Source: Clostridia bacterium
GTDB taxonomy: Bacteria; Bacillota; Clostridia; Peptostreptococcales; Anaerovoracaceae
Length of the DNA: 64,000 nt
Direction of reading: 5' to 3'
Assembly: GCA_024403115.1 (NCBI GenBank)
Contig: JAKSSL010000003.1
Location: forward strand, 8,031 to 72,030
The position numbers and the translations under genes were made by a program. Under the pieces are notes generated by a model, which worked only from the letters and a program-made list of their open reading frames with translations, ran no database searches and was not told the origin of the DNA. This document shows, one piece after another, positions 35,161 through 43,432 of this stretch (its first letter is position 1; each line of letters starts with the position of its first letter).

Positions 35161-35588
35161 TAGTTGTAAGCAAGTGTTTATTTGGATATAACTGTAAATA
35201 CAATGGCGGTAATAATGACAACGATGAGGTCAAGAAATACTGTGAGGGCAAGGATGTAATTCTAGTATGCCCTGAGCAGGCTGGCGATTTGCCAACACCT
35301 AGAGTCCCATCAGAGATTCAGCCTGATGGTCGTGTCTTATCCCGTGATGGTCAAGACCTTAGCGAAGAGTTTTCTCTGGGAGTTCAAAGGGAAATCTCCA
35401 GGGTTTTGGGCGAGAATAAAGCCATTGAAGAGGCAATACTAAAAGCCAACAGCCCATCCTGTGGCGTAGGTCAAGTCTATGACGGGACTTTTACAGGAAA
35501 GCTGGTCCCAGGCAATGGTAAATTCGCTGAAGAGCTTATGAAGTATTGCTCAAAGATATATACTGAAAAGGAGTTAAATAATGATTAA
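35157..35588 (+). CDS. DUF523 family protein (TudS-like putative Fe-S desulfurase)
   Basis: SKCL.G.NC.Y.G.....CPE..G.LPTPR....I pattern typical of DUF523. Overlaps both neighbours. Confidence 0.75.
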   Translation: MIVVSKCLFGYNCKYNGGNNDNDEVKKYCEGKDVILVCPEQAGDLPTPRVPSEIQPDGRVLSRDGQDLSEEFSLGVQREISRVLGENKAIEEAILKANSPSCGVGQVYDGTFTGKLVPGNGKFAEELMKYCSKIYTEKELNND

Positions 35589-37287
35589 CTATAAACAGGA
35601 AATTGCAAAAATTCTAGATGATAAACTAGTTGATCTAAGTTTAGAAGAAATTGAAAATATGTTGGAGATTCCAGCAGATTCAAAGATGGGAGACTTCGCT
35701 TTCCCTTGCTTTAAGCTGGCTAGAACTCTTAGAAAGGCTCCGCCTCTAATTGCAAAGGATATTGTAGCTCAATTGGAGGGCAATGCTTTGTTTGAAAAGG
35801 TTGAAGCTGTTAATGCCTACGTTAATATGTTTATTTCGAAGGAGATGCTTTTAAAGAATACTGTTGAAAGCACTTTTGAAATGGGCGCTGACTTTGGTAA
35901 AAGCCAAATTGGAGAAGGCAAAACTGTAGTAATAGACTACTCATCTCCTAATATTGCTAAGCCTTTCCACATAGGTCATATTAGATCCACAGTAATTGGA
36001 AATGCTTTATACAAAATCTATGATGCTTTGGGCTATGATGTTGTAAGAATCAATCACCTTGGGGATTACGGCACACAATTCGGTAAGATGATCTGCGCAT
36101 ATAGAAAATGGGGCAATAAGGAAGATGTTGAAAGAGAGCCAATTAAGACTTTGCTTTCATACTATACAAAGTTCCATGAAGAGGCTGAAAAAGATCCAAG
36201 CTTAGATGATGAGGCTAGAGATATTTTTGCAGCTCTTGAAAATGGTGCCAAGGAAGAAGTGGCTCTATGGCAATGGTTTAGAGATGAGTCTTTAAAAGAA
36301 TTCAATCGCGTATATGAAATGCTTGATATTAGTTTTGACTCATACAATGGAGAATCATTCTATTCAGACAAGATGCCAGCAGTTATTCAAGAGTTAAGGG
36401 ATAAGGCTTTGCTTGTACCTTCACAAGGCACAGAAATAGTTGAGCTTGAGCAATTCGGTTTAACAGATGCGCCTATAGTAAAAGCAAATGGTTCATCACT
36501 TTACATCACTCGTGATATAGCCGCTGCAATATATAGAAAAAACACTTACGATTTCTACAAGGATATCTATGTAGTTGCATCACAACAAAATCTTCACTTC
36601 CAACAACTTAAGAAGATTATTGAATTGATGGGTTACGATTGGGCAGACAAGATTGAACACGTACCTTTCGGCCTAGTATCTTTGGAAGAGGGAACTATGT
36701 CAACAAGACATGGCAGAGTAGTCTTCTTGGAAGATGTGCTTAATCATGCGGTAGACAAGACTCGTGAAATCATTAAGGACAAGGGTGTTGTAACAGAAAA
36801 CATCGATGAGACAGCTGCAATGGTTGGAATTGGTGCTGTTGTCTTCAACGAGCTTTCAAATAACAGAATAAAGGATTACGTTTTCTCCTATGACAAGGTT
36901 TTGAATTTTGATGGAGAGACAGGCCCATATGTTCAATACACTCACGCAAGAGCTCTTAGCGTTCTAAGAAAAGCTGGAGTTGAAGATATTGACCTTTCAA
37001 AGATTGATTACTCATATCTAAAAGGCGAGGCTGCAACAAATCTTGCTATGGATATATACAAGCTTCCAGAAGTAATAGTTGAGGCCGCTTCAAAGAATGA
37101 GCCATCAGTTGTTACACGCCACGTTGTAGACTTGGCACAAAGCTTTAACAAATTCTATCATGACGAACATATTTTGGTAGAAAATGAAGATGAAAAGCTA
37201 GCAAAACTTGCTTTAGTAAAAGCTGGACAAATTGCCATTAAAAATGGTTTAAATATTCTAGGTGTAAAAGCACCTGAAAAAATGTAG
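35581..37287 (+). CDS. argS: Arginine--tRNA ligase
   Basis: Class I signature SSPNIAKPFHIGHIRS, an MSTR(H)G KMSKS-like motif, and a DALR anticodon-binding C-terminus. Confidence 0.95.
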   Translation: MINYKQEIAKILDDKLVDLSLEEIENMLEIPADSKMGDFAFPCFKLARTLRKAPPLIAKDIVAQLEGNALFEKVEAVNAYVNMFISKEMLLKNTVESTFEMGADFGKSQIGEGKTVVIDYSSPNIAKPFHIGHIRSTVIGNALYKIYDALGYDVVRINHLGDYGTQFGKMICAYRKWGNKEDVEREPIKTLLSYYTKFHEEAEKDPSLDDEARDIFAALENGAKEEVALWQWFRDESLKEFNRVYEMLDISFDSYNGESFYSDKMPAVIQELRDKALLVPSQGTEIVELEQFGLTDAPIVKANGSSLYITRDIAAAIYRKNTYDFYKDIYVVASQQNLHFQQLKKIIELMGYDWADKIEHVPFGLVSLEEGTMSTRHGRVVFLEDVLNHAVDKTREIIKDKGVVTENIDETAAMVGIGAVVFNELSNNRIKDYVFSYDKVLNFDGETGPYVQYTHARALSVLRKAGVEDIDLSKIDYSYLKGEAATNLAMDIYKLPEVIVEAASKNEPSVVTRHVVDLAQSFNKFYHDEHILVENEDEKLAKLALVKAGQIAIKNGLNILGVKAPEKM

Positions 37288-37297
37288 GGGAATAAAT

Positions 37298-38677
37298 ATG
37301 TTGAGATTTTATATAGCCCTTTGGGCTGCGAAGTTATTTTACTTCATTAACAAGTTAATAGGCAGAGCAAGGGACGACAGACCCGGTTTGCTCGCTTTCA
37401 AAATATGCCCTGATTTCCTAGCGAGAATTGGCAAGCCAAAGCTGATGATTACAATCACAGGAACAAATGGTAAGACTACCACTTCGGCTTTGATCAACTC
37501 ATATTTGAAGGAACAAGGCCTAAGAGTTAGCTTTAATGATTGGGGTGCAAATTTACACGCTGGTTACTGCTTGAATTTAATGCGTTGCGTTAATATTTTC
37601 AACAAGGTGACTAAGATGGATGCCAGCGTTCTTGAGGCAGACGAGAAAACTTTGGCTCATACTATGGGTATGATTAAACCTCACTATGTGTTGGTTACAA
37701 ACATTTCAAAGGATTCTCTTCGCAGAAACGGCCATCCTGAATACATCTTCGACTGTGTAGAAAAATGCTTTGAAAAGCTGGGAGCAGACACTACAGCTAT
37801 TCTAAATGCCAACGATCCTATTTCTTCAGAGCTTGCAAGAAATACAGGTGCAAAGAGAGTCTTCTATGGCATGGACGACATAGGCTCCAATCCTTTTGAA
37901 AACATGGTCAAAGATATAGCTGTTTGCCCTAGATGCGGCGGAGAGCTTAAATACAATTACAGACAATATAGACATATAGGTGATTATTATTGCGCAGACT
38001 GTGATTTTAAGACCAAAGATGCAAAGTTCTATGCTACAAAAGTGGATTTAAAAGCTAGAACTATGGACATATTAGAAGACGGCGAGACTACTACTTATCC
38101 ACTTATTTCTGAAACTATTTTCAACGCTTTTAATGTATTATCAGCGGCAGCCGCTTTAAGAACTATGGGTTATGAGAAGGCTTCTCTGGCTGAGTTCTTT
38201 GAAAGACAAAAGGTAACAGAAATAAGAGAAACATGTGTAAAATACAAGGGCAAGGAGTTCCACACTTATGGAGCTAAGAGCCAAAATGTTTCGGCGGCAA
38301 GTACAGTATTTGAATATATGGCTAAGGAAAAGTCAGATAAAATCGTGGTACTTTGTATGGATGAAGTTCAAGACAAAAACCATCCAACAGAGACTTTAAC
38401 ATGGCTTTATGAAACTGATTTCGAATTCCTGAACAGCCCTAATATTAAACAAATTGTCGTTGCAGGTCACATGTACTTAAACCACAGGCTTCGCTTAATG
38501 CTTGCAGGAGTTGATCCAAATAAGATTGCGGCTTGTGAAGATGAGAGCAAGGTGGCTGACTTAGTTGATTTCAGCCAAGATTTCGAAAAGCTGTATGTTT
38601 TATTCGAGATCGACTATGTTACTAAGGGAAGAAACTGGCGTGATGCCATTGTTGAAAAAGCAAAGGAGGTAATGTAA
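37298..38677 (+). CDS. MurT-like Mur-ligase-family protein, paralog 1 (central ligase domain + Cys4 zinc ribbon + DUF1727-type C-terminus)
   Basis: P-loop GTNGKTTTS, LEADEKT, ILNANDP, zinc ribbon CPRCGG..(17)..CADC. No MurC-F N-terminal UDP-binding domain. The N-terminal helix resembles staphylococcal MurT. Followed by a GatD-like gene with a TAATG overlap. Confidence 0.8.
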   Translation: MLRFYIALWAAKLFYFINKLIGRARDDRPGLLAFKICPDFLARIGKPKLMITITGTNGKTTTSALINSYLKEQGLRVSFNDWGANLHAGYCLNLMRCVNIFNKVTKMDASVLEADEKTLAHTMGMIKPHYVLVTNISKDSLRRNGHPEYIFDCVEKCFEKLGADTTAILNANDPISSELARNTGAKRVFYGMDDIGSNPFENMVKDIAVCPRCGGELKYNYRQYRHIGDYYCADCDFKTKDAKFYATKVDLKARTMDILEDGETTTYPLISETIFNAFNVLSAAAALRTMGYEKASLAEFFERQKVTEIRETCVKYKGKEFHTYGAKSQNVSAASTVFEYMAKEKSDKIVVLCMDEVQDKNHPTETLTWLYETDFEFLNSPNIKQIVVAGHMYLNHRLRLMLAGVDPNKIAACEDESKVADLVDFSQDFEKLYVLFEIDYVTKGRNWRDAIVEKAKEVM

Positions 38678-39399
38678 TGAAAGTGGTAGAAAACTTATTT
38701 CCTGAGCTTTGCAATATATACGGAGAAAGCTACAGCGTTGAATATCTAAGCAGATGCAATGGAGATATCAAGCTGGTTCAAACCAATCACAAAGACGTTC
38801 CTGCCTTTGTTACAGAGGATGTGGATATGGTTTATCTAGGTTGCAGCTCCGAGAGAAAACAGGAACAAATTATTGAGATTTTAAAACCTTACAAGGCAAG
38901 AATTAAGGAATTAATTGACAAAGGAACTATATTCCTTGCAACAGGAAATGCCATTGAGGTTTTTGGTAAAAGTATTAAGGATGAGGATCGTGTTATTGAA
39001 GCTTTAGGCTTATTTGAATTTGATTCGGTAAGATATATGGAAGCTGAAAGACACAATTCTCAATATGTTGGAAGTTTTAAGGCAGACAATGGACCAATAA
39101 CAATGTTGGGACATAGAAGCCAATTCAGTTTCGCATATGGTGATTTTGAAAACTTCCCACATTGGTTGGACATTGAAATTGGTATAGGTATGAATAAGGA
39201 GACAAAGAGAGAAGGCATACACTACAACAACTTCTTTGCCACATATTCACTAGGACCATGTCTAATCATGAATCCGCTTTTCGCAAAATATCTATTAAGA
39301 TTAATGGATATAGATGATAGTCTATTATTTGAAAATGAGATTATGGAAGCTTATGAATACAGAAAACACGAGCTTCGTGAAAATCTAGCAAATAGCTAA
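38677..39399 (+). CDS. GatD-like CobB/CobQ-type glutamine amidotransferase-fold protein, paralog 1, without the catalytic Cys/His
   Basis: Aligns by eye to GatD through LATGNAIEVFG (canonical ..ICGGYQ.LG) and REGIHYNNFFATYSLGP (canonical EGIHY..L.GTYLHGP). The nucleophile Cys and the His are both absent. Confidence 0.75.
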   Translation: MKVVENLFPELCNIYGESYSVEYLSRCNGDIKLVQTNHKDVPAFVTEDVDMVYLGCSSERKQEQIIEILKPYKARIKELIDKGTIFLATGNAIEVFGKSIKDEDRVIEALGLFEFDSVRYMEAERHNSQYVGSFKADNGPITMLGHRSQFSFAYGDFENFPHWLDIEIGIGMNKETKREGIHYNNFFATYSLGPCLIMNPLFAKYLLRLMDIDDSLLFENEIMEAYEYRKHELRENLANS

Positions 39400-39461: not shown

Positions 39462-40205
39462 ATGGTTAGAAAAACTAAGATACTTATGGCGTTAATCGCA
39501 GCGCTTTTAGTAGTAATTGCAGTGATTTCTATACTGTTTATTGACACTAAAAACCTATTAGAAGAAGCGCAAGCGGCAAATGCGGCATACGCTAAAACTG
39601 CGGTTAAAACTCAAAAGAAAATTGAGAAAAAGCAGGCTAAAATCGATGACGTTAAAGATAACTTGGACACTGTAAAGGACAAGAATAAGGACCTTAAGAG
39701 TGAAGTTAAGTCTTTGAAAAAAGCCAATGCTAGATTAGAAAAACAAATTGGAAAAGCAAAGGATGCTCAATATAAAGCCGAAGTTGAATTAAAAAAATAC
39801 AAGCAGAGGAAGAGTAAAATCGACAATGTAATTAACCTCGCAAAAAGTAAGCTTGGCTGCAGATATGTTCACGGCCGTTGTGGCCCATACTATTTTGACT
39901 GTCAAGGCTTCGCATGGTATGTATACCACAATACTGTAGGCTGTATTACAACTGGAGGCTGTCATAAACAATTCAATTCTGTTTCCTATGGTTATGTTTC
40001 GAATAATTTAAGTGATGCCAAAAGAGGAGATTTAATATATTTCCTTAAAGGCAGTTATTATTCTCATGTAGCCCTATATATTGGAGGCGGAAAGATTATT
40101 CACGCAACTACTGGTGGCGGATATCATAGGGTTGTAATTACTTCAATTCCTAGATCATGGGCATCATCATTTAAGGTAGTAAGGCCGATTCCAAATGTAA
40201 AATAA
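39462..40205 (+). CDS. Membrane-anchored coiled-coil NlpC/P60 family cell-wall endopeptidase
   Basis: N-terminal TM helix, about 100-aa Lys/Glu-rich coiled coil, C-terminal NlpC/P60 domain with catalytic Cys (YFDCQGF) and His (YSHVALYIGGGKIIHA). Confidence 0.85.
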   Translation: MVRKTKILMALIAALLVVIAVISILFIDTKNLLEEAQAANAAYAKTAVKTQKKIEKKQAKIDDVKDNLDTVKDKNKDLKSEVKSLKKANARLEKQIGKAKDAQYKAEVELKKYKQRKSKIDNVINLAKSKLGCRYVHGRCGPYYFDCQGFAWYVYHNTVGCITTGGCHKQFNSVSYGYVSNNLSDAKRGDLIYFLKGSYYSHVALYIGGGKIIHATTGGGYHRVVITSIPRSWASSFKVVRPIPNVK

Positions 40206-40215
40206 TGGAGATAAA

Positions 40216-41217
40216 ATGACAAAATTAACTTTTATATTAAGAAAATTAACAGATACAAATTATAAGGCAATTTTTAAAACAGCTTCAGATATTGCAAAGA
40301 TTACAGGCAAGAGCAAATTAGCTATTTTAAAGGATATGGCTGATTGCACTGCCAAATATGGTTCAGGCTACGTTGATTACAAAGACTTTAGAATGTACGA
40401 ATTAAGCCCTGAAAAGAGAGCTGAAATTCTTACAATCACAAAGAACAACGAATTGGTCAGAACTTTGAATCAAGCGGAATACAGAGACTTTTTCGAGGAT
40501 AAAGAAAAATTCAACAGAAAGTTCTCCAAGTATCTTCACAGAGAGTGGATGATAATAAATGGAGAAAACTTTGAGGAGTTTAAGGCTTTCGTAGACGGCA
40601 AGCCAGCCGTTATTGTAAAACCTTTGGGCCTATCATGTGGTAAGGGTATTGAAAAGGTTTACCCTGATCAAGAGAAGGACCTTAAGGCAACTTACGACGA
40701 GCTTTATGCTCACAACTGTATATTAGTTGAAGAGCTTGCAAAGCAATGCGACGAAATGAGCGCTTTCTGCACAACTTCAATCAATACAGTTAGATTGGTA
40801 TCAGTAATCACAAATTCTGGAGAGCCTAAGCTTTGCGCTGGCGTATTTAGAATGGGTAGAGAAGGTGCATATGTAGATAATTTCAATCACGGTGGCATAG
40901 GCGCTAATGTTGATGTTTGGAAAGGCGAAACAGCAACAGACGGCTATGACAAGGATAGAAACATCTACGAGTACACTCCAGTAACAAATCAAAAGCTTAA
41001 AGGCTTCAAAATTCCTCAATGGGAAGCTTGCGAAGCTATGGTTAAGGAAGCCGCAATGGTTGTTCCTCAAGTAAGATATGTTGCATGGGATGTTTGCATA
41101 GCTCCAGAGGGCCCATTGCTAATCGAAGGAAACAGTTATCCAGGCCAAGATTTGTCTCAATATCCTGAGTTGGGACTTGGAACTTACAAAGCGATTACAG
41201 ATGTTTTAAACAGTTGA
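40216..41217 (+). CDS. ATP-grasp ligase, 'sugar-transfer associated' (ATPgrasp_ST-like) family
   Basis: VIVKPLGLSCGKGI, VEE, NFNHGGIGANVD and WDVCIAPEGPLLIEGN match the ATP-grasp core of the alpha-L-glutamate-ligase-related group. Confidence 0.7.
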   Translation: MTKLTFILRKLTDTNYKAIFKTASDIAKITGKSKLAILKDMADCTAKYGSGYVDYKDFRMYELSPEKRAEILTITKNNELVRTLNQAEYRDFFEDKEKFNRKFSKYLHREWMIINGENFEEFKAFVDGKPAVIVKPLGLSCGKGIEKVYPDQEKDLKATYDELYAHNCILVEELAKQCDEMSAFCTTSINTVRLVSVITNSGEPKLCAGVFRMGREGAYVDNFNHGGIGANVDVWKGETATDGYDKDRNIYEYTPVTNQKLKGFKIPQWEACEAMVKEAAMVVPQVRYVAWDVCIAPEGPLLIEGNSYPGQDLSQYPELGLGTYKAITDVLNS

Positions 41218-41286: not shown

Positions 41287-41318
41287 TACTATGTATAGAT
41301 ATGAATAGGAGAATGACT

Positions 41319-42695
41319 ATGGGAAAGTTAAAATTTCTTGTAGCACACTGGGCTGCAAAGGCCTCAGTTGTAGCTTTAAAAATCACAAAACACAACGGAA
41401 CAAATTTTCCAGGAGAGCTTGCAATCAAGATCTGTCCTGACTTTTTGAAATACATAGATAAGCCTGAAACTATTATTGGAGTAACAGGAACAAACGGTAA
41501 GACTACTGTATGTAATTTGCTAATTGATATGTTCACTGCTGATGGCCAGGTGCCACTTAATAACAGAGCAGGTTCCAATATTAATTCGGGCATTGCAACA
41601 AGTCTAATTCACGGAGCTAATCTATTTGGAAAATGCAAGCACAACCTAGGAGTTTTGGAAATAGATGAAAGATCAGCTTTGAGGGTATTCCCTTATGTAA
41701 AGCCAAACTACTTGATCATTACAAACCTGTTTAGAGATTCCATGAAGCGTAATGCTAACACAGAATATATTGCTGACATTTTAAGCAAATACATTCCTAA
41801 GGAGACTAAATTAGTTCTAAATGCAGATGATTTAATCTCATCAAATGTTGCACCAGAAAACCCAAGAGTATATTTTGGAATCGATAAGATGGATAGTGAC
41901 ATAAAGGAATGCACAAACCTAATCAATGATATTAGAATTTGCCCAGTATGCCATAGCAAATTGGAGTATGAGTATTTGAGATATCACCACATTGGAAAAG
42001 CACATTGCGTTTCCTGTGACTTTAAATCTCCAGGATATGACTACTGTGCAAAGAATGTAAATATAGATGATATGACCATGGAAATAGTTGATAAGGACGG
42101 TCTAGGTAACTACCGACTAATCAGCAATGGCATTCATAATATTTATAATATGGTAACTGTTATTGCACTGTTCAGAGAGCTTGGATACAAGCACGGCATT
42201 ATAGAAAAGTTAATGAGCCAAACTTCTATAGTAAAGAGCAGATATAATGCAGTACCAGCAGGCAAGGTAAGAGTAATAAATCAAATGGCCAAGGAAAACA
42301 ATGCCCTTGGATCATCGAGAGCTTTTGACTTCGTGTCCAAGGAACCTAACGACAAGGAATTGATTTTGATGATGAACTGTCTAGGTGATGAGAAACACTG
42401 GTCAGAAAATACTTGCTGGCTATATGACTGCGACTTTGAATTTCTAAACGACGAAAAGATTAAGAAGATAATTGTTACAGGACCTAGATATAAGGACTAT
42501 ATCCTGAGACTTTTAATAGCTGGAGTTGATAGAGCAAAAATCGTGGACACTGCTCATGAAATTGATGCACCAGATTTGCTGGACTTCACTCCTGGGGAAG
42601 ATATTTATGTCTTCTTTGGAACAGATTCCCTGGCTCTTGGAAACAAGGTCCTTGCCAAAACAATTGACTTGGCAAAAGAAAGGGGTGATAAGTAA
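41319..42695 (+). CDS. MurT-like Mur-ligase-family protein, paralog 2
   Basis: GTNGKTTVC, LEIDERS, FRDSMKR (MurT has FRDQMDR), VLNADDL, zinc ribbon CPVCHS..(17)..CVSC, DUF1727-type C-terminus. ATG 41319 follows TAGGAGA; the track start is 41301. Confidence 0.8.
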   Translation: MGKLKFLVAHWAAKASVVALKITKHNGTNFPGELAIKICPDFLKYIDKPETIIGVTGTNGKTTVCNLLIDMFTADGQVPLNNRAGSNINSGIATSLIHGANLFGKCKHNLGVLEIDERSALRVFPYVKPNYLIITNLFRDSMKRNANTEYIADILSKYIPKETKLVLNADDLISSNVAPENPRVYFGIDKMDSDIKECTNLINDIRICPVCHSKLEYEYLRYHHIGKAHCVSCDFKSPGYDYCAKNVNIDDMTMEIVDKDGLGNYRLISNGIHNIYNMVTVIALFRELGYKHGIIEKLMSQTSIVKSRYNAVPAGKVRVINQMAKENNALGSSRAFDFVSKEPNDKELILMMNCLGDEKHWSENTCWLYDCDFEFLNDEKIKKIIVTGPRYKDYILRLLIAGVDRAKIVDTAHEIDAPDLLDFTPGEDIYVFFGTDSLALGNKVLAKTIDLAKERGDK

Positions 42696-43432
42696 TGAAA
42701 ATTGAAGTATTATTCCCTGAGATTTGCAATCTTTTTGGAGAACTAGCAAACATTAGATATTTGGAATCCAGCTTAAAGGAAAGCGGTGAGTTTTACGAAA
42801 TTACATACACTTCCTTGAAGGATGAACCTTTATTTGCCAGTGAAAAACCGGATTTAATCTACATGGGCGGAATGTCTGAGCATTCTCAAAGCCTTGTTGT
42901 AGACAAGCTTATGCCATATAGAGACAGAATTATTGACTTAATTAAGGACGACACGAATTTCCTTATCACATCAAATGCTTTGGAAATTTTCGGAGAAAGA
43001 ATCGAGTTTTGCGATGCTGACTACGAGGATATTAAAGGCCTTAGCATCTTCCCAACTGTAGCAAAGAATCAAATGTATAAAAGATTCAATTGCCTGTATT
43101 TGGGCAAGCTAGGTGATATGGAAATAGTAGGCTTTAAAAGCCAATTCGGTCATAGTTATTTGAATGGAGACAAGAACTATGAGGACCTATTTGAAACAAT
43201 AAAGGGAACAGGATTAAACCCTGAATATAAAAACGAGGGGATAAAGGTTAATGGCTTCTTGGCAACTTATGTTGTTGGACCTATCTTGGTGCTAAATCCT
43301 GATTTTACAAAGGCTTTAATGAAGAGGATGGGCGTAGGAGAACCAAAGCTGGCTTATGAAGAGGCAGCATACGAAAGCTACAATCAAAGGCTTAATGAAT
43401 ACAAGGAAGAAAATAGAGGCTTCTATTATTAG
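42695..43432 (+). CDS. GatD-like CobB/CobQ-type amidotransferase-fold protein, paralog 2, without the catalytic Cys/His
   Basis: LITSNALEIFG in place of the Cys elbow, and NEGIKVNGFLATYVVGP in place of the ..GTYLHGP His motif. TAATG overlap with the upstream ligase. Confidence 0.75.
   Translation: MKIEVLFPEICNLFGELANIRYLESSLKESGEFYEITYTSLKDEPLFASEKPDLIYMGGMSEHSQSLVVDKLMPYRDRIIDLIKDDTNFLITSNALEIFGERIEFCDADYEDIKGLSIFPTVAKNQMYKRFNCLYLGKLGDMEIVGFKSQFGHSYLNGDKNYEDLFETIKGTGLNPEYKNEGIKVNGFLATYVVGPILVLNPDFTKALMKRMGVGEPKLAYEEAAYESYNQRLNEYKEENRGFYY

Follow-up and report, generated by a model that had tools for sequence, protein, structure and literature searches.

MurT-like ligases paired with inactive GatD-like subunits form a large clade in gut and rumen Clostridia

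Introduction

The lipid II isoglutaminyl synthase MurT/GatD (EC 6.3.5.13) performs an essential, drug-targeted step of cell wall synthesis in staphylococci, streptococci and mycobacteria, and is defined by the coupling of a glutaminase, GatD, to a ligase, MurT. Structures are available from Staphylococcus aureus (6GS2, 6H5E, 7Q8E), Streptococcus pneumoniae (6FQB) and Streptococcus pyogenes (9SQ9). Here we analyse two MurT-like/GatD-like gene pairs on a stretch of 64,000 nucleotides from a Clostridia bacterium of the family Anaerovoracaceae (contig JAKSSL010000003.1, positions 8,031 to 72,030; this whole stretch is called the window, and coordinates given without a contig name refer to it). The host assembly comprises 1.08 Mb in 50 contigs and is rated 97% complete. 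Both pairs belong to a sister clade of canonical MurT/GatD which is common in gut and rumen Clostridia and in which the ligase has been kept, the glutaminase has been discarded and both sides of the subunit interface have been rewritten under selection.

The interface has been studied in two of the solved enzymes. The exchange D349N leaves S. aureus MurT almost inactive, and Asp349 has been named as the third residue of the catalytic triad (PMC6113224). In S. pneumoniae, D355A lowers the activity without abolishing it, and the authors of that study place the triad Asp in GatD itself (PMC6085368). An earlier note on this DNA, made from the sequence alone, had stated that a MurT Asp completes the GatD triad in both species; this is correct for D349 of S. 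aureus and overstated for D355 of S. pneumoniae. In the pneumococcal structure the MurT opening towards the active site of GatD is flanked by the loop 135-141 and by Asp355, and Trp360 of MurT is needed for GatD binding (PMC6085368).

Both ligases are intact

MurT-like ligase 1 (37298-38677, forward strand, 459 aa, P0001) and MurT-like ligase 2 (41301-42695, forward strand, 464 aa, P0003; the gene caller starts it at 41319) both match the Pfam domains MurT_C (DUF1727, PF08353; 63 and 81 bits) and Mur_ligase_M. The letters and coordinates which the earlier note had quoted for the two genes agree exactly with the translation of the window. In neither paralog is there an N-terminal UDP-substrate domain, and the P-loop lies at residue 55 or 63. 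When the sequences were compared to the PDB with HMMER, the closest solved relatives of both were the MurT chains from S. aureus, S. pneumoniae and S. pyogenes (E-values 6e-43 to 1e-25), the best match of MurT-like 1 being S. aureus MurT with 6e-43. An AlphaFold monomer model of MurT-like 1 has a mean predicted local distance difference test score (pLDDT) of 89 and a predicted template modelling score (pTM) of 0.86. A Foldseek search of the PDB with this model returned MurT chains as the 13 best matches, with template modelling (TM) scores of up to 0.79, followed by a pseudomurein ligase and MurF. The assignment to the MurT relatives rather than to MurC-F, which had been made from the zinc ribbon, is thus borne out by domain and fold matches. 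The scores against the NCBIfam equivalog model for MurT (136-185 bits) are below its cut-off of 800 bits, but this cut-off is strict, since canonical clostridial MurT proteins also reach at most 457 bits.

The motifs of the ligase can be read directly in both translations, as had been described. The P-loop GTNGKTT is encoded at 37460-37480 in MurT-like 1 and at 41487-41507 in MurT-like 2, both on the forward strand. The acidic motif is EADE in MurT-like 1 (37634-37645, forward strand), where Glu113 corresponds to S. aureus Glu108, and EIDE in MurT-like 2. The counterpart of the S. aureus NADD motif (residues 163-166) reads NAND in MurT-like 1 (37805-37816, forward strand) and NADD in MurT-like 2. 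A Cys4 zinc-ribbon insertion, CPRC...CADC in MurT-like 1 (37925-38002, forward strand), aligns with C202, C205, C224 and C226 of S. aureus MurT and has the form CPVC...CVSC in MurT-like 2.

Residue conservation was evaluated with 120 homologs per paralog (57-73% identical), referred to as family 1 and family 2 for MurT-like 1 and MurT-like 2, respectively; S. aureus residue numbers were counted from the HMMER alignment. At least 119 of 120 homologs in both families have the Gly and Lys of the P-loop, Asn85, Glu108, Asp110, Glu111, the TN...D134 and Arg138 positions, Asn163, Asn267, Arg298, Lys315 and Asn316. The same applies to Asp166, except that it is found in 118 of 120 proteins of family 2. 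In the P-loop of family 1 the Gly, the Lys and the last Thr are present in all 120 homologs, while the position directly after the Lys (Thr60) is occupied by Thr in 81, by Ser in 37 and by Gly in 2. The ribbon cysteines (C210, C213, C232 and C235 in paralog 1; C214, C217, C236 and C239 in paralog 2) are invariant among the homologs, each being present in 120 of 120 proteins of family 1. Glu108 is a Mg2+ ligand in S. aureus (PMC6113224). Asn85 is essential in S. pneumoniae. The ligase residues are common to 45 canonical MurT proteins and 68 proteins of the sister clade, which together make up 113 classified pairs.

The idea that the ligases are inactive as well was considered and is rejected, as their catalytic residues are nearly invariant across the 240 homologs; P-loop and acidic residues are canonical in both paralogs.

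The GatD-like partners lack the glutaminase residues

Each ligase gene is followed by a gene for a GatD-like protein without the catalytic Cys and His. GatD-like 1 (38677-39399, forward strand, 240 aa, Pfam GATase_3) overlaps with its start the stop codon of MurT-like 1; GatD-like 2 (245 aa) is encoded at 42695-43432 on the forward strand. Alignment to S. aureus GatD shows that Cys94 is replaced by Gly and His189 by Leu in GatD-like 1, while the replacements in GatD-like 2 are Ser and Val. As judged from these residues, the partner is certainly dead as a glutaminase.

The same picture emerged from a survey of 68 GatD-like proteins of the sister clade, which we call the dead clade with reference to its GatD subunits. 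Position 94 is Gly in 96%, position 95 (Gly in S. aureus) is Asn in 90% and position 93 (Ile in S. aureus) is Thr in 93% of these proteins, so that T93-G94-N95, together with E98, is a new conserved feature. Position 189 has Leu, Ile or Val. Neither the GGG oxyanion loop nor the E147-N148-H149 block, both conserved to at least 98% in canonical GatD, is present. Retained features are Arg128 (90%) and the positions Gly190-Pro191 and Asn196-Pro197. Arg128 of S. aureus GatD is reported to bind the substrate carboxylate.

Both gate elements of the ligase have been rewritten

The segment that carries Asp349 in S. aureus, LNDNAADGRDTSW, is replaced by MDEVQDKNHPTETLTW in MurT-like 1 (38357-38404, forward strand) and by MNCLGDEKHWSENTCW in MurT-like 2 (42372-42419, forward strand). 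Asp349 is the last Asp of DNAADGRD. In HMMER alignments to the PDB chains 7q8e, 6gs2, 6fqb and 9sq9 as well as in an independent MAFFT alignment, it falls on Thr366 of paralog 1 and on Asn370 of paralog 2; Arg348 corresponds to Glu365 of paralog 1. This placement is anchored by an invariant Trp (Trp352 in S. aureus) which stands three positions beyond 349 without an intervening gap. A conserved Asp at the triad position was searched for in both alignments and is not there. Asp346 and Gly347 are lost in both paralogs, too. The D(N)xxDGxD segment with Asp349, which both paralogs lack, is 100% conserved in 45 canonical clostridial MurT proteins.

The earlier note had described the W-(I/L)-Y-(D/E)-x-D-F-E anchor as kept and the DNAADGRD stretch as not conserved. 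The anchor is indeed retained, and its Trp, a part of the GatD interface, is found in all 120 homologs of each family (W369 and W373, respectively). DNAADGRD is indeed lost, but in its place there is not a degenerate sequence but a strongly conserved new motif, D-x-x-H-x-x-E-(T/N)-x-x-W, which is fixed in about 120 homologs per paralog. The segment reads D-E-[VL]-Q-D-[KR]-N-H-P-[TS]-E-T-x-[TS]-W in family 1 and [NS]-C-x-G-D-x-K-H-W-S-E-N-x-C-W in family 2. In S. aureus numbering, Asp at position 342 (D359 of MurT-like 1) occurs in 119 of 120 homologs of family 1 and in all 120 of family 2, His at 345 (H362) in 120 and 104, and Glu at 348 (E365) in 120 and 120. Position 349 itself is Thr (T366) in 119 of 120 proteins of family 1 and Asn in 120 of 120 proteins of family 2, so the replacement of Asp349 is not due to chance. 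The mean conservation of the 16-residue segment exceeds that of the whole protein (0.87 vs 0.76 in family 1, 0.82 vs 0.72 in family 2), and it ranks in about the top 15% of sliding windows. Acidic residues persist around the former gate: position 348 is Glu, and S. aureus position 355 is either Asp or Glu.

The loop 135-141 is the second element affected. In canonical MurT proteins (RDQMDRFGE in S. aureus, residues 133-141), Gln135, Asp137 and Gly140 are 100% and Glu141 is 98% conserved. The dead clade has RDS-x-x-RN-(A/G)-H instead, with Asn139 conserved to 96% and the canonical invariants replaced; in MurT-like 1 the counterpart is KDSLRRNGH (37709-37735, forward strand). The monomer model is least confident in these two rewritten stretches, where residues 141-150 have a pLDDT of 64 and residues 361-370 one of 57, as is expected for interface loops that are modelled without their partner. 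The conservation patterns indicate that both gate elements have been rewritten under purifying selection and are not decayed.

The glutaminase was lost first

We collected 125 clostridial MurT/GatD pairs. A scan of named genomes with sequence patterns contributed 50 loci, and 200 genomes sampled evenly across the same class (the class sample) contributed 74; the pattern-scan loci are biased toward the dead clade because the patterns were derived from the paralogs in the window. In 45 pairs, GatD has both Cys and His and MurT has Asp at position 349. Neither Cys nor His is present in 58 pairs with a non-acidic residue at position 349 and in 11 pairs with Asp or Glu at this position. The loss of one of the two GatD residues next to a retained Asp349 is seen in 7 pairs.

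When a maximum-likelihood tree was built from 126 MurT-type proteins, a single branch divided it into a canonical and a dead side, with a support of 98 in the Shimodaira-Hasegawa-like approximate likelihood ratio test (SH-aLRT). On the canonical side (55 rows), 46 partners have Cys and His, 6 are partial, 1 is dead and 2 are unknown; on the dead side (71 rows), 68 partners are dead and 3 are unknown. Two early groups on the dead side keep Asp or Glu at position 349 ('ISRKYYTS(D/E)xSW' and 'ISRRYxFDDLSW'), and in a third group residue 349 is Asn and the Trp is replaced by Tyr. MurT-like 2 lies within the large and widespread 'E-N' group ('EN' subfamily). MurT-like 1 represents a long-stemmed sister lineage, 'E-T' ('ET' subfamily), which occurs only in six loci of the Anaerovoracaceae type.

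On this tree the state of GatD changes six times and that of MurT position 349 twice. Five of the six independent losses of the GatD Cys or His, all five inside the canonical clade, leave Asp349 in place. As these losses and the early groups of the dead side keep an acidic residue at 349, the glutaminase died first and Asp349 was replaced later. By this tree, Asp349 has been lost after the death of the glutaminase, once or twice, and not as a coupled event. The earlier note had concluded that both halves of the composite site were remodelled together: at this locus both sides are indeed changed (Cys94/His189 and Asp349), but the changes were not concurrent. A formal test of coupling by independent pairs has no statistical power, since the six GatD changes yield only 0-1 informative pairs and there is essentially one event. 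The clade thus exhibits the order of such a change, with the nucleophile being lost first and the partner loop being remodelled later.

Some loci deviate within their clade. In the canonical-clade loci L062, L065, L066, L071, L094, L095, L101 and L128, GatD has either Ser, Gly or Ala instead of Cys94 or Asp or Ser instead of His189, next to a MurT partner that keeps DGxD; these may be recent inactivations, cases with alternative nucleophiles or assembly errors. In a dead subgroup (L117-L123, from genomes G034, G071, G083, G104, G133, G155 and G160) the Trp is changed to Tyr and Arg128 of GatD to Val or Ile, and only 1 of the 7 genomes has a gene of the ATP-grasp family described below. This subgroup may represent a further functional shift.

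Distribution of the dead clade

The closest relatives of both ligases are found in Anaerovoracaceae and gut Clostridia. At least 150 clusters at 50% identity score above 290 bits with a profile made from the two paralogs, which is about twice the score of canonical MurT proteins. In the class sample, a MurT-type gene is present in 115 of the 200 genomes, nearly always as one copy per genome, and the dead clade is represented in about 20-22 genomes, i.e. about a tenth of the sample. A search of the host genome revealed no canonical MurT. It is also absent from Mogibacterium pumilum ATCC 700696, Eubacterium nodatum ATCC 33099, Coprococcus sp. OM04-5BH and two metagenome-assembled genomes (MAGs), and in no genome checked did the dead clade and canonical MurT/GatD occur together.

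A literature search (MurT in connection with group-B walls, paralogs or dead GatD) returned no description of the dead clade. The clade is large and, as far as this search shows, undescribed. The 'MurT-like' proteins of a study on pseudomurein were considered as the same group and dismissed, being archaeal and without GatD.

Association with an ATP-grasp ligase and a flippase

A gene for an ATP-grasp ligase of the Pfam family ATPgrasp_ST (40216-41217, forward strand; E-value 8e-47) precedes MurT-like 2 in the window and is a recurrent partner of the dead clade. It adjoins the pair in 17 of 50 loci and is fused to the N-terminus of the MurT-like protein in 12 cluster representatives (P0286 and P0319 are examples). 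Genes of this family occur in 14 of 22 dead-clade genomes and in 20 of 178 others, a contrast that is overstated as related genomes are not independent. A sequence search of the PDB with the partner from the window gave nothing useful, and its only NCBIfam match is a weak one related to RimK.

Other fusions join the ligase to its own partner subunit and to a flippase. MurT-like and GatD-like proteins are fused in P0256, P0263 and P0332, which indicates an obligate pair. In P0278, a flippase of the multidrug/oligosaccharidyl-lipid/polysaccharide (MOP) type is fused to the MurT-like protein, and this flippase domain matches best to SpoVB (140 bits) and also to MurJ. The fused and adjacent flippases score highest on the general Polysacc_synt model. 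A MAG labelled Erysipelotrichaceae by NCBI has the gene order argS ... Polysacc_synt flippase, ATPgrasp::MurT-like fusion, GatD-like, aldolase, murA.

Another contig of the host (C4:3490-25734) carries a further five ATPgrasp_ST genes, with the genes for three long MurF-like ligases (619-919 aa) interspersed among them. Two of these MurF-like proteins were inspected, and both of them, like a fourth on C5:3210-5195, have C-terminal tails resembling leucine-rich repeats. The arrangement resembles a second, large cluster of peptide ligases in a 1.08-Mb genome.

Neighbouring genes in the window

The gene argS (35581-37287, forward strand) is located directly upstream of MurT-like 1. In the Erysipelotrichaceae MAG, argS (L154:2590-4233) is likewise found a few genes upstream of the ATPgrasp::MurT-like fusion, so that this synteny is common to different orders. 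Between GatD-like 1 and the ATPgrasp_ST gene there is a gene for an NlpC/P60 endopeptidase of the RipC/CwlO type (39462-40205, forward strand). Such a gene is found beside the MurT-like/GatD-like pair in none of 50 related loci and at this position only in the host genome, and it was probably inserted into the module within this lineage. Genes of nucleoside catabolism follow downstream of GatD-like 2.

Proposed function and alternatives

From the intact ligase residues, the dead glutaminase, the selected remodelling, the clade structure and the gene fusions we infer a substrate, a nucleophile and a role for the new motif. Our tentative proposal, to which we give somewhat less than an even chance, is that the pairs are active, glutamine-independent MurT-type ligases which act on a lipid-linked peptidoglycan precursor and, stepwise with the ATP-grasp enzyme, add an amino acid or another amine. 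Each MurT-like protein would work as an obligate pair with its catalytically dead GatD-like subunit at the inner face of the membrane, where it would activate a carboxylate of the precursor as an acyl-phosphate, as other Mur ligases do. Since there is no glutaminase present, the attacking amine must have a source other than glutamine, and we take it to be not ammonia but an amino acid or a different amine. A changed nucleophile source, as suggested in the earlier note, would indeed be the natural consequence of an intact ligase in which both sides of the glutaminase site are remodelled. MurT-like 2, MurT-like 1 and the ATP-grasp enzyme may build a short amide-linked substituent or bridge in successive steps, with the alpha-carboxyl of D-Glu, the site amidated by canonical MurT, as its most likely attachment point. 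Segment 354-369 and loop 138-146 of MurT-like 1 would form a redesigned gate at the interface, and the GatD-like protein would be a scaffold and possibly the subunit that binds the nucleophile. Links to lipid II are provided by the SpoVB/MurJ-type flippase fused in P0278 and by the flippase and murA genes around the ATPgrasp::MurT-like fusion of the Erysipelotrichaceae MAG. Also in favour of this reading are the retained interface Trp, the strong conservation of the new motif, the residues gained by the GatD-like subunit, the recurrence of the ATP-grasp gene, the retention of two pairs together with this gene in a 1.08-Mb genome, the VHLY motif in the MurE of the host (see below) and the lack of a canonical MurT in the carriers searched.

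A more specific version may be considered, though with greater reserve. The pairs and the ATP-grasp enzyme might put amino acids or amines on the D-Glu alpha-carboxyl, making the group-B interpeptide bridge, as in Erysipelotrichaceae, and related D-Glu substituents, with the former glutaminase presenting the amine and the D-x-x-H-x-x-E-(T/N) loop being part of the acceptor gate. Two members of the Erysipelotrichaceae have walls of type B1-delta, in which D-Glu bears Gly-L-Lys or L-Asp-L-Lys (PMC4062643). Building such a bridge takes two ligations in succession, each with activation of a carboxylate, and a fused ATP-grasp/MurT-like enzyme could supply both.

The group-B idea was tested by the specificity motif of MurE in the genomes that carry the dead clade. 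To our knowledge, group-B walls in the Schleifer-Kandler scheme never have meso-diaminopimelic acid (mDAP) at position 3 of the stem peptide, and the MurE motif of the mDAP type is DNPR. This motif is present in most dead-clade genomes, namely in groups c and d, in most of group e, in genome G178, in Coprococcus and in Saccharofermentans. Three dead-clade genomes have a DNPA MurE, one of them with a second copy that reads DSPG. The genomes that deviate are those of the Anaerovoracaceae type and the Erysipelotrichaceae MAG: the motif is EHNR in Mogibacterium, EDPR in E. nodatum and EDPR plus DDPQ in the MAG. The only MurE of the host (contig C47:49967-51280) has T-M-V-H-L-Y-G compared to T-S-D-N-P-R-T in the mDAP type, and its family score is below the usual level (E-value 9e-114). 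Stem-peptide position 3 may thus be unusual in the host lineage, and a group-B wall is possible for this lineage of the Anaerovoracaceae type. Our literature search yielded no peptidoglycan type for Mogibacterium or Anaerovoracaceae.

Several observations weigh against our proposal. A group-B bridge as the general function of the clade has to be rejected, since the MurE of most carriers is of the mDAP type DNPR. The fusions are known from cluster representatives only, with the flippase fusion being a single case, and the family label of the Erysipelotrichaceae MAG is that of NCBI and does not give its wall type. The other recurrent neighbours in the 50 loci are housekeeping genes (cardiolipin synthase, M50 peptidase, PolC, YchF, RlmN). 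Finally, the single MurT-type gene per genome that is the rule in the sample, and two clades that were not seen together in any genome checked, would also fit a simple functional replacement, with amidation by free ammonia.

This last option is the most serious alternative, although we regard it as rather unlikely. The pairs would be ammonia-dependent lipid II isoglutaminyl synthases that amidate D-iso-Glu with free ammonia or ammonium, in which gut and rumen are rich, the GatD-like protein serving only as a structural subunit or as an ammonia entry. S. aureus MurT/GatD uses ammonia directly at pH 8.5 while still needing GatD (Munch 2012, as cited in PMC6085368). The lack of both clades together in any genome checked, the nearly always single MurT-type gene per genome, the ordinary DNPR MurE in most carriers, the acidic residues that persist near the old gate and the housekeeping context of the pairs are all in its favour. 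It leaves unaccounted for, however, why two diverged pairs are kept in a 1.08-Mb genome, why the ATP-grasp gene recurs next to or fused with the ligase and why new residues have become fixed in the GatD-like subunit where the glutaminase pocket used to be.

It is improbable that the substrate is another lipid-linked polymer, for example the precursor of a wall polysaccharide or one of the teichuronic type, whose uronic-acid or other carboxylates would be amidated or aminoacylated. The Pfam family of the ATP-grasp partner is named 'sugar-transfer associated', the flippases fit best to a general polysaccharide model and the five further ATPgrasp_ST genes on C4 lie beside long MurF-like proteins, but the fused flippase has its best match to SpoVB and matches MurJ as well, murA and an NlpC/P60 peptidoglycan endopeptidase are among the neighbours, and Asn85 of the acceptor site is unchanged, as are other MurT residues. 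That both subunits are inactive relics, or have a purely regulatory or scaffolding role, is very improbable, for although the glutaminase half is certainly dead, the catalytic residues of the ligase do not vary among hundreds of homologs, the clade comprises >150 clusters at 50% identity and the pair has been kept twice in a 1.08-Mb genome.

We know of no gene that has been assigned to the decoration of the D-Glu alpha-carboxyl with groups other than an amide, and our literature search revealed none. The dead clade makes it testable which enzyme attaches such non-amide groups, and cultured carriers exist.

Comparison with known systems

The closest known system is MurT/GatD. As in this enzyme, both paralogs have two domains, lack an N-terminal UDP-binding domain and contain the P-loop, Glu108, Asn85, Asn267, Arg298 and Lys315-Asn316, the Cys4 ribbon and the W-(L/I)-Y-(D/E)-x-D-F-E anchor; in both pairs of the window a GATase_3 partner is translationally coupled. 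Unlike MurT/GatD, the pairs have D-x-x-H-x-x-E-(T/N) in place of DNAADGRD and a rewritten 135-141 loop, their GatD-like subunits are devoid of Cys94, His189, the GGG oxyanion loop and E147-N148-H149, and they form a separate clade (SH-aLRT 98).

MurC-F, the pseudomurein (pMur) ligases and cyanophycin synthetase (CphA) share the central ATP-binding domain and the acyl-phosphate mechanism, and provide the next-best matches in sequence and fold. What they attach to a carboxylate is an amino acid and not ammonia. They differ in having an N-terminal nucleotide-substrate domain (MurC-F and pMur ligases) or an ATP-grasp domain (CphA), and in having neither a Cys4 ribbon nor a MurT_C signature nor a GatD partner.

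Carbamoyl-phosphate synthetase I of ureotelic animals is ammonia-dependent and has an inactive glutaminase-type domain. It resembles the dead clade in keeping a glutaminase part without nucleophile beside an active ATP-dependent synthetase, while its synthetase fold is unrelated and its chemistry different, and it is a precedent only for the use of free ammonia.

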